In this document: in pieces, positions 1 through 4,844 of the stretch
How positions within the stretch are numbered: position 1 is the first letter of the stretch
How the letters are laid out: every line of letters begins with the position of its first letter
From: a virus
Taxonomy: Duplodnaviria; Heunggongvirae; Uroviricota; Caudoviricetes
DNA length: 6,879 bases
Strand: one strand, 5' to 3'
Virus record (IMG/VR): IMGVR_UViG_2681813233_000006
Made by a program: the position numbers and the translations under genes
The notes under the pieces: generated by a model
What the model was told of the DNA's origin: nothing
Databases searched by the model: none
The model's input: only the letters and a program-made list of their open reading frames with translations

Positions 1-14
1 TGGTTTGGGAGAAG
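1..14. repeat. Inner arm of the left inverted repeat / left crossover site of the invertible segment (truncated by the window edge)
   Basis: Positions 1-14 (TGGTTTGGGAGAAG) are the exact reverse complement of 1865-1878 (CTTCTCCCAAACCA). The match stops at position 15 versus 1864. Confidence 0.7.
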
Positions 15-391
15 CGGCAACGAGGAACGTCGGAACGGGTACCGGCCAAGTACCAGATATGAGTAGTTTTACAACGGGGCACTCTGGAGCAGCAGACTGG
101 CCGATTCCTAAATCTGGATGGAGTAAGGGGCCGGATGGGGTAATTACACAATGGGGTATTTTCGGTTTCCCCGTTGGACAGACAGGGACGAATGTTGTTT
201 TCCCGCTACCTTTCCCCGCGCGGGTCGAATCAATTACACTGACAATAGCAGATATCCAGGAGTCTCTGCTTTCTCCAACAACCATGCCTGCTTATGGAGT
301 TAACTCAACTGGTACTTCAAGAACGGGTTTTACAGCCCGTATGTCAGGCGTCGGTGGGTTTAATCTTTGCTATATAGCGAAAGGGAGATAA
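1..391 (+). CDS. Tail-fibre protein, C-terminal variable (receptor-binding) segment, Sv-like; 5'-partial. The ORF is open to the window edge in this frame; the track's start at position 5 is a TTG, not a real start.
   Basis: Frame is open from position 2 (GGT TTG GGA GAA...) to the TAA at 389-391. Gly/Thr/Ser-rich translation typical of fibre tips. It is followed 4 bp later by a tail-fibre assembly gene with its own Shine-Dalgarno, and it starts inside the inverted repeat that defines the invertible segment. Confidence 0.75.
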   Translation, partial: GLGEAATRNVGTGTGQVPDMSSFTTGHSGAADWPIPKSGWSKGPDGVITQWGIFGFPVGQTGTNVVFPLPFPARVESITLTIADIQESLLSPTTMPAYGVNSTGTSRTGFTARMSGVGGFNLCYIAKGR

Positions 392-395
392 CAGA

Positions 396-839
396 ATGAA
401 TAAAGTTAAAAGTGTTTACAGCCCGTCCGAAAATGCAATCTACAACGCAGCGCTATATGAAAGTTATATCAAGGAGGGGACATGGCCGCAGGATGGTATT
501 GAAATCAGCGATGAGGATGCTGTCAGATTTAATGGGGGAAATAAGCCAACAGGAAAAATGCTGGGAATGGTTTCAGGGACCCTTGCATGGGTTGATGAGC
601 CGCCGCTTTCACCAGAACAGAAAATATCAGATGCAGAAAACATGAAAGCCACATTTCGTGCAAAAGCTGACAGTGAAATATCCTGGCGTCAGGATGCTGT
701 TGATGCTGGTATCGCAACTGATGAAGAAACTTCAACTCTCACCCAATGGAAGAAATACCGTGTGCTGCTGATGCGTGTTGATACGTCAACAGCACCCGAT
801 ATTGAATGGCCTACGCCTCCGGCAGCTCAGGCCAGATGA
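396..839 (+). CDS. Tail-fibre assembly protein (Mu U / P2 G / Tfa family chaperone), 147 aa
   Basis: Shine-Dalgarno AAGGGAG at 381-387. C-terminus ...WKKYRVLLMRVDTSTAPDIEWPT... carries the conserved tail-fibre-assembly C-terminal motif (as I recall it from E. coli TfaE-type proteins). Positioned directly after the fibre tip. Confidence 0.85.
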   Translation: MNKVKSVYSPSENAIYNAALYESYIKEGTWPQDGIEISDEDAVRFNGGNKPTGKMLGMVSGTLAWVDEPPLSPEQKISDAENMKATFRAKADSEISWRQDAVDAGIATDEETSTLTQWKKYRVLLMRVDTSTAPDIEWPTPPAAQAR

Positions 840-1413
840 CATCAGGCGCGGTGCTGGTATCTGTTGCCGTCACCGCGTCAATGTAATCCAGCACGACGTT
901 AAGTCGGGTTGTTTCTGCCGGCGTCAACTTCCGTCCGGCCTGTAATTTCAACTGAATCAGACTAATGGAAGCTATTGCAGTATCCATCAGCGACTGGCGC
1001 TGTGCTTCTGCTGCATCTACTGCGGCGCTATGCTGTGCCTCGGTATCCGTCACCCATTTCTCACCATCCCATTTATCGTATGGCGTTAACGGGGCTATAG
1101 TGGTTGTATTTTCAGGGTAATCACCCGGAGTTGTGATTTCTTTGGCGTCTCCCGTTTCGGTGTTATAGACGATTTCACCGCGATGGTCTGGCACATATTC
1201 CCATGAGTTTAAATCTGCCGAACGGCAGATTGCATAACCAGCCTTATGTATACCAGGTTCATCCAGACAGGAATATGCCGGGATACCAACACCAACGGCA
1301 AGATATTCATTTGAAGTGGAAATATATTCCCGAGTTTCACCATCATAGCTATAGACGGTAATATTCCCCGCCTTCGTGGCAATAAGCTCGCTATTTAATA
1401 CAGCGTTATCCAT
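811..1413 (-). CDS. Alternative tail-fibre assembly protein (U'/Tfa'-like), 200 aa, partner of Sv'
   Basis: C-terminus ...DTSTAPDVIWPELPEA has the same conserved Tfa motif. Its start codon overlaps the stop of the upstream minus-strand fibre-tip ORF at 1411-1415. Convergent with the + strand Tfa, overlapping it by 29 bp. Confidence 0.8.
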   Translation of the reverse strand: MDNAVLNSELIATKAGNITVYSYDGETREYISTSNEYLAVGVGIPAYSCLDEPGIHKAGYAICRSADLNSWEYVPDHRGEIVYNTETGDAKEITTPGDYPENTTTIAPLTPYDKWDGEKWVTDTEAQHSAAVDAAEAQRQSLMDTAIASISLIQLKLQAGRKLTPAETTRLNVVLDYIDAVTATDTSTAPDVIWPELPEA

Positions 1414-1919
1414 TATGCAGCCCTCACGATAAAGTTAAATGCAATATTTCGCGCACGTGTTTCCGTTGATGTTCTGGCAACACGTGATGCATCAAAATAA
1501 TAATTCGCCTGTTTATATGTACCACCTGTCGCAATTGATGCGAGATTTGGTGTCAATGTTAAAGAGGCAAATGCGCCGACAGTATTATTATTTGGCCCCG
1601 TGGTCATATCCAAAAAGCTACCTGTAATATTTTGCAGCGTATCGCTCTGAGCACTCAATAACGCTCGCCCACTGTCCACTCCACGCCCATCATCCCAGCC
1701 ACGAATAAACTCACCACGTAAATCAGGCAATTTATTTGTCGGGTAAGCCTTTGCCAGCTCCGGGTATTCTTCAGCAGAAAAAGCTGCACCATTGCATTTC
1801 AACCAGCCTGTCGGTGGTGTAGCTGAAGGCCACGGAACAGGCACACCAACCGGTAATGCAGAGCCTTCTCCCAAACCAACGTTTAAGAAAATGCAGCGAT
1901 TACGACTAACTGGCATCAT
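1413..1919 (-). CDS. Alternative tail-fibre C-terminal variable segment (Sv'-like) with a phage tail-collar-like motif; silent in this orientation. The part inside the invertible segment is about 1413-1879; the ATG at 1919 is probably not a real start.
   Basis: Translation contains GWLKCNGAAFSAEEYPELAKAY, which resembles the tail-collar domain of Mu S / P2 H-type fibres. The reading frame continues across the right inverted repeat, as required for fusion to the constant fibre part after inversion. Confidence 0.7.
   Translation of the reverse strand: MMPVSRNRCIFLNVGLGEGSALPVGVPVPWPSATPPTGWLKCNGAAFSAEEYPELAKAYPTNKLPDLRGEFIRGWDDGRGVDSGRALLSAQSDTLQNITGSFLDMTTGPNNNTVGAFASLTLTPNLASIATGGTYKQANYYFDASRVARTSTETRARNIAFNFIVRAA
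1866..1891. other. Right crossover site (hix/gix/cix/pix-like 26-bp site with AA core at 1878-1879)
   Basis: TTCTCCCAAACC-AA-CGTTTAAGAAAA has the two imperfect inverted half-sites AAACC...GTTT around a 2-bp core. By my recollection it matches hixL (TTCTTGAAAACCAAGGTTTTTGATAA) at about 19 of 26 positions. The inner half-site coincides with the 14-bp inverted repeat. Confidence 0.65.
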
Positions 1920-1946
1920 CCCCGGTTTTTATTCAGGGAGATGATC

Positions 1947-2513
1947 ATGCTTATTGGCTATGTACGCGTGTCAACAAATGACCAGAACACCGATTTGCAA
2001 CGTAGTGCGCTGAACTGCGCGGGATGTGAGCAGATTTTTGAGGACAAAATCAGTGGCACTAAGTCCGACAGACCGGGGCTGAAAAAACTACTCAGGACAC
2101 TATCGGCAGGAGACACGCTGGTTGTCTGGAAGCTGGACAGGTTGGGGCGCAGTATGCGGCATCTTGTTACGCTGATAGAAGAGTTGCGCCAGCGTGGTGT
2201 GAATTTCAGAAGCCTGACTGACAGTATTGATACCAGTACCCCAATGGGCCGTTTCTTTTTTCATGTCATGGGTGCCCTGGCTGAAATGGAACGCGAACTG
2301 ATAGTTGAACGTACCAGGGCAGGGCTGGCTGCAGCTCGTGCCAAAGGCAGAGTAGGTGGACGCCGTCCTAAGTTGACCACCGAACAGTGGGCACAGATTG
2401 GGCGTTTACTCGAGGCCGGAGAATCAAGACAGCGTATTGCACTGATTTTTGATGTAGGCGTTTCTACCATTTATAGAAAATTTCCGGCAAATAAGATCAA
2501 TGAATCCCCCTGA
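1947..2513 (+). CDS. Serine DNA invertase, Gin/Pin/Cin/Hin family (resolvase-type catalytic domain plus C-terminal helix-turn-helix)
   Basis: Translation MLIGYVRVSTNDQNTDLQR...LVVWKLDRLGRSM...SPMGRFFFHVMGALAEMERELIVERT...GRVGGRRPKL...STIYRKF is near-identical in its conserved blocks to Gin/Hin/Pin as I recall them. The track ORF starts at 1941 (MIM...), but the Shine-Dalgarno AGGGAG at 1935-1940 abuts that ATG and lies 6 nt before the ATG at 1947, which gives the canonical MLIGY N-terminus. Confidence 0.93.
   Translation: MLIGYVRVSTNDQNTDLQRSALNCAGCEQIFEDKISGTKSDRPGLKKLLRTLSAGDTLVVWKLDRLGRSMRHLVTLIEELRQRGVNFRSLTDSIDTSTPMGRFFFHVMGALAEMERELIVERTRAGLAAARAKGRVGGRRPKLTTEQWAQIGRLLEAGESRQRIALIFDVGVSTIYRKFPANKINESP
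1965..2045. promoter_or_regulatory. Probable Fis-dependent recombinational enhancer inside the 5' coding region of the invertase gene
   Basis: In Hin/Gin/Cin systems the enhancer lies within the first 60-170 bp of the invertase ORF, about 100-165 bp from the adjacent crossover site. This stretch (GTGTCAACAAATGACC...GATTTGCAACGTAGTGCGCT...) is in that position and resembles my memory of the hin enhancer. Exact Fis sites are not asserted. Confidence 0.4.
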
Positions 2514-2561
2514 ATCAGCATTATGTTGATTATCCCTGCAAGCAGACAAATACCGTTATTT

Positions 2562-2579
2562 TGTGTGAATAACGACACA
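2562..2579 (+). promoter_or_regulatory. P2-type late-promoter activator site (Ogr/Delta-class dyad TGT-N12-ACA) upstream of the sheath gene
   Basis: TGTgtgaataacgacACA at 2562-2579 sits in the 142-bp intergenic region. Its centre is about 85 bp before the FI ATG, compatible with a -55-centred activator site and a short leader. The -10 element is not clearly identifiable. Confidence 0.5.
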
Positions 2580-2655
2580 ACTGCGCTTAGCTGTTTGTCA
2601 GGCACAATCACTTCAACATAGGGCGAAGCCTAATCCAATCAGGAGGTTCGCCACT

Positions 2656-4407: not shown

Positions 4408-4710
4408 ATGAGCGATAAGCAGACTGAAAAGACCATTCAACTGGATACCCCCATCAAGCGCGGTAAAACAGAAATCACCGAAATTGTGCTGCGTAAACCG
4501 CAGTCCGGTGCGCTGCGCGGTACACGCCTGCAGGCCATTATGGATATGGATGTAAACGCGATGATGATCGTGATCCCCCGCATCTCCAGTCCGGCACTGA
4601 CTGCACAGGAAATTGCTGAGATGGACCCGGCAGATCTCACTGCCATGTCGGTTGAGGTTGTCACTTTTTTGTTGAAGAAGTCGGTGCTTGCCGGTTTACC
4701 GACAGCCTGA
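4408..4710 (+). CDS. E: Tail assembly chaperone gpE (lambda gpG analogue), 100 aa, zero-frame product
   Basis: Located between the tube and tape-measure genes. Contains the slippery heptamer T_TTT_TTG near its 3' end. Confidence 0.85.
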   Translation: MSDKQTEKTIQLDTPIKRGKTEITEIVLRKPQSGALRGTRLQAIMDMDVNAMMIVIPRISSPALTAQEIAEMDPADLTAMSVEVVTFLLKKSVLAGLPTA

Positions 4711-4844
4711 CGGTTGACGATCTGGTGGCAGATATCGCCACCATTTTTCACTGGCCGCCATCCGTTACTGACGTTATGCCGCTGACCGAAGTGCTGGAAT
4801 GGCGGTATAAAGCGATTCAGAGAAGCGGGGCCAACGATGAGTGA
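4408..4844 (+). CDS. E': gpE+E' tail assembly chaperone made by a programmed -1 ribosomal frameshift at 4665-4671 (joined as 4408..4671 then 4671..4844)
   Basis: The heptamer TTTTTTG at 4665-4671 is in X_XXY_YYZ register with the E frame. The -1 frame is open from there to the TGA at 4842-4844, which overlaps the tape-measure ATG at 4837 (ATGAGTGA). The lambda G/GT and P2 E/E' arrangement is conserved in this position. Confidence 0.75.
4665..4671 (+). other. Slippery heptanucleotide T_TTT_TTG for the E/E' -1 frameshift
   Basis: Codon register checked by hand against the E start at 4408 (ACT TTT TTG in zero frame). Confidence 0.7.

Follow-up and report, generated by a model that had tools for sequence, protein, structure and literature searches.

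A probable two-state, Pin/Gin-type inversion switch of the tail-fibre tip in a P2-like E. coli prophage

In the G segment of phage Mu and the C segment of P1, which share a common mechanism, a constant fibre part (Sc) is followed by an invertible Sv-U / U'-Sv' block, and the invertase (Gin or Cin) is encoded outside the segment, with an enhancer in the 5' end of its gene. The Hin invertase of Salmonella lies inside its own H segment and flips a promoter to control flagellin, unlike the locus described below, in which a fibre gene fusion is concerned and the invertase lies outside. Phage P2 has a fixed H-G pair and is devoid of an invertase. The Fels-2 Fin of Salmonella is reportedly an invertible tail-fibre locus of a P2-like prophage, and is said to have been described by Kutsukake in 2006. 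For e14, a cryptic prophage of E. coli K-12 with a P-segment and the invertase Pin (pinE), phase variation by inversion has been shown by sequencing and PCR, and inversion in P2-like prophages of EPEC was reported from culture sequencing (PMC4272514); in both cases the cultures contained the two orientations side by side.

We analysed a stretch of viral DNA of 6,879 nucleotides (hereafter the window) and concluded, with a probability that we put at about 93%, that the tail-fibre tip of a P2-like E. coli prophage is controlled here by a site-specific inversion switch of the Pin/Gin type with two states. This type of switch is already well known, as the original prediction had stated (invertible fibre loci are described in PMC4272514), and as a phage device it is ordinary. 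The features of the locus are the following.

1..13, no strand: left crossover site, partial; of the TT core only the second T is included, as base 1, and the inner half-site follows at 2-13 (GGTTTGGGAGAA).
2..391, + strand: gp53-like tip (Sv), variable C-terminal fibre part of 129 codons (Gp53-like_C, Pfam PF21882, E=1.4e-10).
396..839, + strand: Tfa, tail-fibre assembly protein of 147 aa (Pfam Caudo_TAP, E=1e-32).
811..1413, - strand: Tfa', tail-fibre assembly protein of the alternative cassette, 200 aa (Pfam Caudo_TAP, E=8e-31).
1413..1877, - strand: collar-domain tip (Sv'), alternative variable C-terminal fibre part (Pfam Collar, E=1.4e-15).
1866..1891, no strand: right crossover site, complete (TTCTCCCAAACC AA CGTTTAAGAAAA), with the core AA at 1878-1879.
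1947..2513, + strand: serine DNA invertase of the Hin/Gin/Cin/Pin group, 188 aa (Pfam Resolvase, E=2.6e-53, and HTH_7, E=1.4e-15).
1968..2031, no strand: probable recombinational enhancer within the invertase gene, proposed from homology to hin and gin.

The original prediction had described positions 1-1891 as a complete switch of the Gin/Pin type. Completeness held for the element but not for the window, which includes only half (13 bp) of the 26-bp left site and is without the constant part of the fibre. The stated extent omitted the invertase and the enhancer-like region, both of which are part of the system. The family assignment stood, with the qualification that the element is nearer to e14 Pin (86% amino acid identity; right site differing at 1 of 26 bases) than to Gin (75% identity).

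The perfect 14-nt inverted repeat on which that prediction was built is real. Positions 1-14 (TGGTTTGGGAGAAG) and 1865-1878 (CTTCTCCCAAACCA) are exact reverse complements of each other. No other perfect 14-nt inverted repeat exists within 1-2600, and when this region was shuffled 1000 times, one arose in just 4 cases. The base preceding position 1 is T, as had been forecast, in genomes 99.9% identical to the window, so that the full repeat measures 15 bp. It encloses two convergent cassettes, one per strand, in which the 3' ends of Tfa and Tfa' overlap by 29 nt; the repeat itself encodes the G-L-G-E with which both tip ORFs begin.

Each repeat supplies the inner half of a crossover site. On the right this is a 26-bp site of the hix/gix/pix type, with a 12-2-12 build, and the left site is built likewise. 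The window does open inside the left crossover site, as had been claimed, its outer half (TTCTCGCATACC) and first core T preceding the window start. The complete left site, TTCTCGCATACC TT GGTTTGGGAGAA, is present at 12 near-identical loci, and both 26-bp sites were identical in 12 of the 12 loci examined (those of E. coli 22-245 and LF4-1 and of 10 assemblies in which the encoded invertase protein is identical). Since the cores TT and AA are identical when read in inverted orientation, the element has two inverted 26-bp sites with imperfect 12-bp halves and a common 2-bp core. A model of the 26-bp site, which gave 0.01 false matches per shuffled window, also recovered the Mu, e14 and hin sites, whose architecture is alike. 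Salmonella hixL (TTCTTGAAAACC AA GGTTTTTGATAA) has an AA core too, whereas the Mu segment is 3 kb long with 34-bp perfect repeats and a TC/GA core, compared with 1.9 kb and TT/AA here. The inner half-sites of e14 are identical to ours.

The forecast failed for the outer half of the left site. It had been expected to resemble TTTTCTTAAACG, the reverse complement of 1880-1891, but the real sequence, TTCTCGCATACC, matches this at 7 of 12 positions and the inner half-site at 10 of 12. Finding no inverted copy of 1879-1891 upstream had been proposed as grounds for refutation, which was too strict; the outer half-sites are mutually unlike in e14 as they are here.

The constant part of the fibre lies wholly outside the window. 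The missing upstream sequence is available from E. coli 22-245, which is 99.9% identical across window positions 1-2600 and has the outer half-site, the core T and the constant part in frame. As anticipated, a P2 gpH-like constant region stands upstream, in frame, in E. coli genomes whose identity to the window is 99.8-99.9%, and in 22-245 the result is a 479-aa fibre made of a P2 gpH-like N-terminus and the gp53-like tip. The + cassette is thus the expressed one in the window orientation, as had been proposed, and the collar tip (Sv') is separate from the constant part. In three flipped genomes (L002, L009 and L010), the collar tip is fused to the constant part instead, giving a 504-aa fibre. 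The two states therefore encode Phage_tail_fib + Gp53-like_C (479 aa) or Phage_tail_fib + Collar (504 aa), each followed by a Caudo_TAP gene. One constant N-terminus can accordingly be continued in frame by either C-terminus, each with its own Tfa, and the two tips probably confer different host ranges.

The original prediction had suggested looking in assemblies for the flipped segment, and it was found. Among the 12 loci, 6 assemblies carry the same 1852-bp segment in the window orientation and 3 carry it flipped; the segments in the two orientations are at least 99.8% identical and their outer flanks are unchanged. The exchange point falls in the core, the ambiguity being limited to its two bases. 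In E. coli LF4-1, the same segment is inverted (1848 of 1852 bases), and the junctions read TTTTCTTAAACG TT GGTTTGGGAGAA and TTCTCCCAAACC AA GGTATGCGAGAA, which indicates that only the outer halves were swapped. That the segment inverts, with exchange at the core, was established by comparing genomes, not by experiment. Most of the 80 relatives in IMG/VR have exactly two sites, at conserved positions. Among the relatives with a detected right site, nearly all have it 80-81 nt ahead of the invertase start, as does e14. Several relatives' contigs end exactly at the crossover core, and two open with an exact inverted copy, 61 nt long, of the flank on the invertase side, implying that both junctions were present within one read set. 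The culture from which the window derives may likewise have been mixed in orientation, for which these contigs of relatives offer indirect hints. The switch family is very common: the junction of a collar-type cassette with the invertase flank was detected in 857 of 5426 complete E. coli genomes, at the level of similarity that megablast detects, though such junction counts are unusable as an orientation ratio, because the collar cassette also occurs in e14-like and other prophages.

The prediction of a serine invertase just outside the segment was equally borne out. The protein matches the structure of Mu Gin (3UJ3) over its full length (E=1.6e-92). It has the N-terminal catalytic domain with Ser9/10 and the C-terminal helix-turn-helix of the small serine recombinases, the catalytic serine S9 being kept in the motif MLIGYVRVS9T; R42 is also present. 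K46, K47 and R50 correspond to Hin K47, 48 and 51 (numbering offset -1), and a Q-x-x-R-L in DNA-binding helix 1 aligns with Hin Q151, R154 and L155 in the 1HCR alignment. The Hin residues K47, K/R48, K/R51, Q151, R154 and L155 have been reported as unique to Fis/enhancer-dependent invertases (PMC3798978). The residues expected to contact Fis and the enhancer are thus conserved at the level of sequence, which, by analogy, suggests that this invertase too would be dependent on Fis and an enhancer.

Invertases of this family have a recombinational enhancer in cis, with two Fis sites some 48 bp apart; in Hin, Gin and Cin it is situated within the 5' end of the invertase gene. The candidate enhancer region is colinear with the 5' coding region of hin (73% identity over 99 nt). 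It holds two Fis-like 15-mers, GTGTCAACAAATGAC (1968-1982) and GCGCGGGATGTGAGC (2017-2031), with centres 48-49 bp apart. The proximal one matches hin at 14 of 15 bases, and the core of the distal one has a G+C-rich centre. According to PMC3798978, ATTTA and TAATG are located between the pair of Fis sites in hin. The centre of the candidate lies 96.5 bp from the site centre, compared with 105.5 in hin. Among 73 unique genes including Mu gin, synonymous sites are invariant in codons 10-13 and nearly so in codon 9. Statistically this signal of constraint is weak (Fis-site codons, p about 0.04; codons 7-30, p=0.10); its direction is that expected for an embedded enhancer, but the test is marginal and confounded by the start of the gene.

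Together, these observations are consistent with the following mechanism. Invertase dimers would bind the two inverted 26-bp sites, the left one (half of which is window 1-13) and the right one (1866-1891), and the complex would be activated, by analogy with Hin and Gin, by an enhancer bound by Fis and located within the invertase gene at its 5' end. Both sites would then be cut at the central dinucleotide (TT/AA) and the strands rotated, inverting the 1.9-kb segment. The constant gpH-like N-terminal 350 residues and the late promoter would stay upstream of the segment, so that inversion would select the C-terminal receptor-binding part, together with the matching assembly chaperone, read from the constant part: the gp53-like tip with Tfa in the window orientation, and the collar-domain tip with the TfaE-like Tfa' after inversion.

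We considered the possibility that the locus, although built like an inversion switch, is a frozen relic, the invertase being inactive or unexpressed and the orientations found in other genomes reflecting old events. The window itself displays one orientation only, many prophage switches decay (e14 stfE, for instance, is annotated as a pseudogene), and a consensus scan of 1-2700 for promoters and terminators gave nothing above the shuffled expectation and no sigma-70-like promoter ahead of the invertase. Yet prophages with an identical invertase and segments at least 99.8% identical are found in both orientations (6 versus 3), which means that inversion must be recent. In addition, all five ORFs (the two tips, Tfa, Tfa' and the invertase) are intact, the catalytic and enhancer-contact residues are conserved, and relatives' contigs break at the junction or hold both junctions. 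We consequently regard a frozen relic as very improbable. Still less likely is a multi-site shufflon, similar to Min of p15B or to the three-repeat EPEC P2-like prophage, in which extra sites would generate more than two fibre variants. There is a precedent in PMC4272514, where three repeats and four variants are described for one P2-like prophage, and a few IMG/VR relatives (L046, L049 and L058) have 3-4 site-like matches. In the window, however, the 26-bp site model found a single full site besides the partial one at the start, with no site separating the cassettes, and a half-site search with up to 3 mismatches returned 6 matches versus 5.6 expected by chance, of which only the two already known were exact. 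Near-identical complete loci have exactly two sites, and just two arrangements of the segment have been seen. With the half-site search at chance level and a single full site by the model, we rejected a shufflon for this element.

The two orientations could also be assembly artefacts, or result from RecA recombination between short repeats rather than from a site-specific event. Some contigs of relatives have indeed plainly been mis-joined at the repeat (L045, L052 and possibly L046). A repeat of 15 bp is nevertheless shorter than any read length, so that spanning reads fix the orientation in an assembly, and both states are found in chromosome-level assemblies, one of which is a complete genome. 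RecA recombination is efficient only at lengths far above 15 bp. Moreover, the point of exchange falls within the 2-bp core of a 26-bp site of the invertase type, and an intact invertase gene lies next to it. We find an artefact or RecA origin hardly credible. The preferred reading remains a two-state site-specific switch.

Among the described systems, the e14 P-segment is the nearest and has the layout of this switch, with a tip and Tfa, a Tfa' and tip', and then the invertase. Tfa' is 88% identical to e14 TfaE and the collar tip 57% identical to StfE, whereas the + cassette differs, its gp53-like tip being 25% identical to StfP. Furthermore, e14 is lambdoid and defective, and its fibre has decayed (stfE being a pseudogene), while the present switch belongs to an apparently intact P2-type tail module. 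Mu is a transposable myovirus, unlike the P2-like prophage here, and its cassettes are distant: only Tfa matches, with 43% identity to U and 27% to U' (C-terminal part). The C-terminal ~63 residues of Tfa are 43% identical to Mu U and 40% identical to P2 G. The loci of the P2-like prophage of EPEC E2348/69, for which a two-variant switch was reported (PMC4272514), are alike in phage type and position; the EPEC and Fels-2 loci are likened by description, and their cassette content may differ. RefSeq E. coli genomes annotate the same element.

The constant part is 49-53% identical to residues 1-330/390 of P2 gpH, and the downstream order FI, FII, E/E', T is the same as in P2. The P2 fun(Z) slot, between G and the F-operon promoter, here holds the second cassette and the invertase. 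P2 gpH resembles neither tip, and a search of it revealed no crossover-like site, which rules out an origin of the cassettes from the C-terminus of P2 H. An alignment of P2 pF with the invertase-FI region was poor (64% column identity, with long gaps), and the activator site was not placed by homology.

On the minus strand, an ORF starting from an ATG in the flank beside the invertase (window 1919/1916) runs through the crossover site into the 'off' tip, with 168 aa in the window orientation and 143 aa in the flipped one; PGAP annotates both. An in-frame flank ATG is also found in Mu and e14 and is kept in 42 of 50 unique flanks, and the leader encoded from it differs freely between e14 and the present element. 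The conserved TGGCATCAT can be explained just as well if it serves the invertase promoter as an extended -10 element, and the conservation of the flank ATG was therefore not counted as evidence of translation. There is only a slim chance that the cassette adjoining the invertase is not fully silent and that a lysogen makes a free 'off' tip, perhaps with its chaperone. If it did, a free tip without the part that attaches to the baseplate might block receptors or exclude superinfecting phage.

Beyond correct annotation, the importance of the finding is small. The element explains why a 1.9-kb block differs in orientation between assemblies of the prophage, why contigs tend to break exactly at the switch and why pipelines call a truncated 'phage tail protein' beside the invertase. 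It also predicts that lysates of the P2-like phage would be a mixture of two fibre types, which would bear on host-range typing and on any application of such phages or their tailocins.

The first 14 nucleotides of the window (TGGTTTGGGAGAAG) and positions 1865-1878 (CTTCTCCCAAACCA) are exact reverse complements of each other. No other perfect 14-nt inverted repeat was found within positions 1-2600, and one appeared in 4 of 1000 shuffles of this region. Four intact ORFs, arranged as two convergent pairs, lie between the repeat arms. The genes referred to below, with their domain matches where these were obtained, are the following:

2-391, + strand: fibre tip (Gp53-like_C)
396-839, + strand: chaperone Tfa (Caudo_TAP)
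811-1413, - strand: chaperone Tfa' (Caudo_TAP)
1413-1877, - strand: fibre tip (Collar domain)
1947-2513, + strand: invertase (Resolvase and HTH_7), directly outside the segment
4408-4710: gene E, with an E' extension to about 4844

The exact repeat, the ORFs and the domain matches confirmed the original observation of an inverted repeat bracketing two cassettes with an invertase outside. Both tips start with G-L-G-E, residues that are encoded by the repeat. The invertase is followed by P2-type tail genes (sheath FI, tube FII, E and tape measure). The convergent Tfa genes share 29 nt at their 3' ends (811-839) and finish, on opposite strands, with similar peptides (DTSTAPDIEWP and DTSTAPDVIWP).

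The right crossover site (26 bp, 1866-1891) reads TTCTCCCAAACC AA CGTTTAAGAAAA, the right repeat being its inner half, and follows the 12-2-12 arrangement seen in hix, gix and pix sites. A site model giving 0.01 matches per shuffled window recovered gixL and gixR of Mu as well as the e14 sites, CTCTCGAAAACC TT GGTTTGGGAGAA and TTCTCCCAAACC AA CGTTTATGAAAA, the latter differing from the right site of the window by one base. The same model recovered Salmonella hixL, TTCTTGAAAACC AA GGTTTTTGATAA; P2 has no crossover-like site. The left core has its second base at position 1, so that no more than 13 bp of the 26-bp left site fall within the window.

The missing part was found in E. coli 22-245 (NZ_AP038810), which matches positions 1-2600 at 99.9%. 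There, position 1 is preceded by a T, as had been predicted, and this T by TTCTCGCATACC. The outer half-site had been expected to be TTTTCTTAAACG, which the actual one matches at only 7 of 12 bases; it is a good half-site itself, sharing 10 of 12 bases with the inner half, and the outer half-sites of e14 are also unlike each other. An open frame joins a 350-residue N-terminal part to the gp53-like tip, and the fused fibre has 479 aa, in line with the predicted upstream constant part fused to the + cassette. This constant part shares 49-53% identity with P2 gpH over the first 330-390 residues of the latter, and the prophage is P2-like throughout (capsid, terminase, lysis, baseplate V-W-J-I, H, then FI-FII-E-T-U-D-ogr).

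In E. coli LF4-1 (NZ_CM141450), the same segment (1848/1852 bases) is reversed with respect to both invertase and constant part, and the collar tip is joined to the latter as a 504-aa fibre. The junctions, TTTTCTTAAACG TT GGTTTGGGAGAA and TTCTCCCAAACC AA GGTATGCGAGAA, indicate that the outer halves exchanged partners, with the ambiguity confined to the 2-bp core, as would be expected of core cleavage. We compared 12 loci, comprising these two strains and ten NCBI assemblies retrieved by exact look-up of the invertase protein. Both 26-bp sites were identical in all 12. Six had the 1852-bp segment (≥99.8% identical) oriented as in the window (L001, which is 22-245, L005, L006, L008, L012, L013) and three had it flipped (L002, L009, L010); the remaining three (L007, L011, L014) carried another segment, of 1816 bp, with the same design. 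The prophage occupied two chromosomal positions, beside ybjL or beside smpB, and the lysogens are therefore independent. It lay at ybjL/ybjM in L001, L006, L009 and L013, and at smpB (ssrA region) in L005, L007, L008 and L010-L012.

We considered the possibility that the switch is a frozen relic. This is unlikely, since a segment of at least 99.8% identity occurs in either orientation alongside identical invertases. For this element, the site scans, together with the observation of only two arrangements of the segment, exclude a multi-site shufflon. Nor do an assembly artefact or RecA-mediated exchange fit the data: chromosome-level assemblies, including one complete genome, show the two states, the repeat has a length of only 15 bp, and the exchange was located to the core.

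The invertase matched the Mu Gin structure 3UJ3 over its full length (E=1.6e-92) and shares 86% identity with e14 PinE and 75% with Mu Gin. It carries the nucleophile S9. Its K46, K47 and R50 correspond to Hin 47, 48 and 51, and helix 1 of the DNA-binding domain has Q, R and L at the positions of Hin 151, 154 and 155; these residues are reported as unique to Fis/enhancer-dependent invertases (McLean et al., PMC3798978). The 5' coding regions of hin and of this gene are colinear (72/99 bases). The Hin enhancer has AT-rich ATTTA and TAATG between its two Fis sites (PMC3798978); in hin these fall in GATTTACAGCGTAATGCG, the window equivalent being GATTTGCAACGTAGTGCG. The flanking 15-mers, GTGTCAACAAATGAC (1968-1982; 14/15 bases as in hin) and GCGCGGGATGTGAGC (2017-2031), both fit G-N13-C and are 48-49 bp apart, centre to centre. 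In a set of 73 unique genes, one of them Mu gin (67% nucleotide identity overall), synonymous positions were invariant in codons 10-13 and nearly so in codon 9. The formal synonymous-site test was weak (p=0.04 for Fis-site codons, 0.10 for codons 7-30), and a recombinational enhancer within the gene is therefore no more than probable.

A promoter scan of positions 1-2700 found none for the invertase. An ORF starting in the invertase-side flank (1892-1946; ATG at 1919/1916, - strand) crosses the site into the 'off' cassette, encoding 168 aa in the window and 143 aa in the flipped genomes, both annotated as proteins by PGAP. Of 50 unique flanks, 42 have an in-frame ATG, as do Mu and e14. Read on the + strand, these bases form TGGCATCAT (1911-1919), nearly invariant among Mu, e14 and the window. 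It may serve the invertase as an extended -10 element, a role that would account for its conservation without translation.

Two sites were detected in most of the 80 IMG/VR loci encoding invertase relatives (86-99% aa identity), and in 68 of all 90 loci scanned. Where detected, the right site lay 80-81 nt before the invertase start in nearly all relatives, and the left site 1.2-2.1 kb further upstream. Several independent contigs begin at, or a few bases from, a crossover site: L049 with TTGGTTTGGGAGAAGG, L029 with TTGGAATAGGAGAA, and L040, L043 and L063 within 6 nt of it. L045 and L052 open with an exact 61-nt inverted copy of the invertase-side flank, the assembler outcome expected when reads contain both junctions. 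Because contigs of relatives start at sites or carry both junctions, the simplest reading of the window start, one base into the core, is that the switch ended the contig there. The window ends (6879) inside the tape-measure gene, with 681 codons present (1025 in relatives), and many of the contigs carrying this invertase measure just 2-10 kb; the window, too, may be a short one, with the switch at one end. L046 (IMGVR_UViG_2698536335_000014), L049 and L058 have 3-4 site-like sequences, and L046 an exact 897-nt inverted duplication taking in the invertase side. These are either true multi-site arrangements, with the invertase within the invertible region, or misassemblies from mixed orientations.

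Elsewhere in the tail module, a perfect TGT-N12-ACA dyad (TGTGTGAATAACGACACA, 2562-2579) lies 85 nt before the FI start. It shares its geometry with the annotated P2 pF activator site, centred 83 nt upstream of FI, and probably represents the Ogr-dependent F-operon late promoter; the region aligns poorly with P2 pF. The E frame contains a slippery heptamer, T TTT TTG (4665-4671), followed by a -1 frame 'GpE family' ORF, RefSeq-annotated at the equivalent of 4725-4844. By comparison with the P2 annotation, these features correspond to the programmed -1 frameshift (E/E+E') of the tail assembly chaperones.

The element is the design of e14 Pin, Mu Gin and P1 Cin inside a P2-type tail module: the second cassette and the invertase stand between G and the F-operon activator site, where P2 has fun(Z). 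The tail-fibre switch is real and, as originally interpreted, of an already known type. Using culture sequencing and PCR, Goldberg et al. showed phase variation of e14 by inversion; the same culture sequencing led them to report inversion in a Mu prophage and two P2-like prophages of EPEC, and they described both two-variant and three-repeat versions (PMC4272514). All parts of the element are already annotated in RefSeq. Among 5426 complete E. coli genomes, 2776 matched parts of the query, and a junction of a collar-type cassette with the invertase flank was present, at megablast-detectable similarity, in 857. At the DNA level, the collar tip and Tfa' cassette (798-1884) shares 91-93% identity with the stf/tfa (side-tail-fibre) ends of HK97 and HK106, both lambdoid, and 98% with a Citrobacter phage; no matches of this kind were found for the + cassette. 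As judged from sequence, receptor-binding cassettes move horizontally among unrelated phage types.
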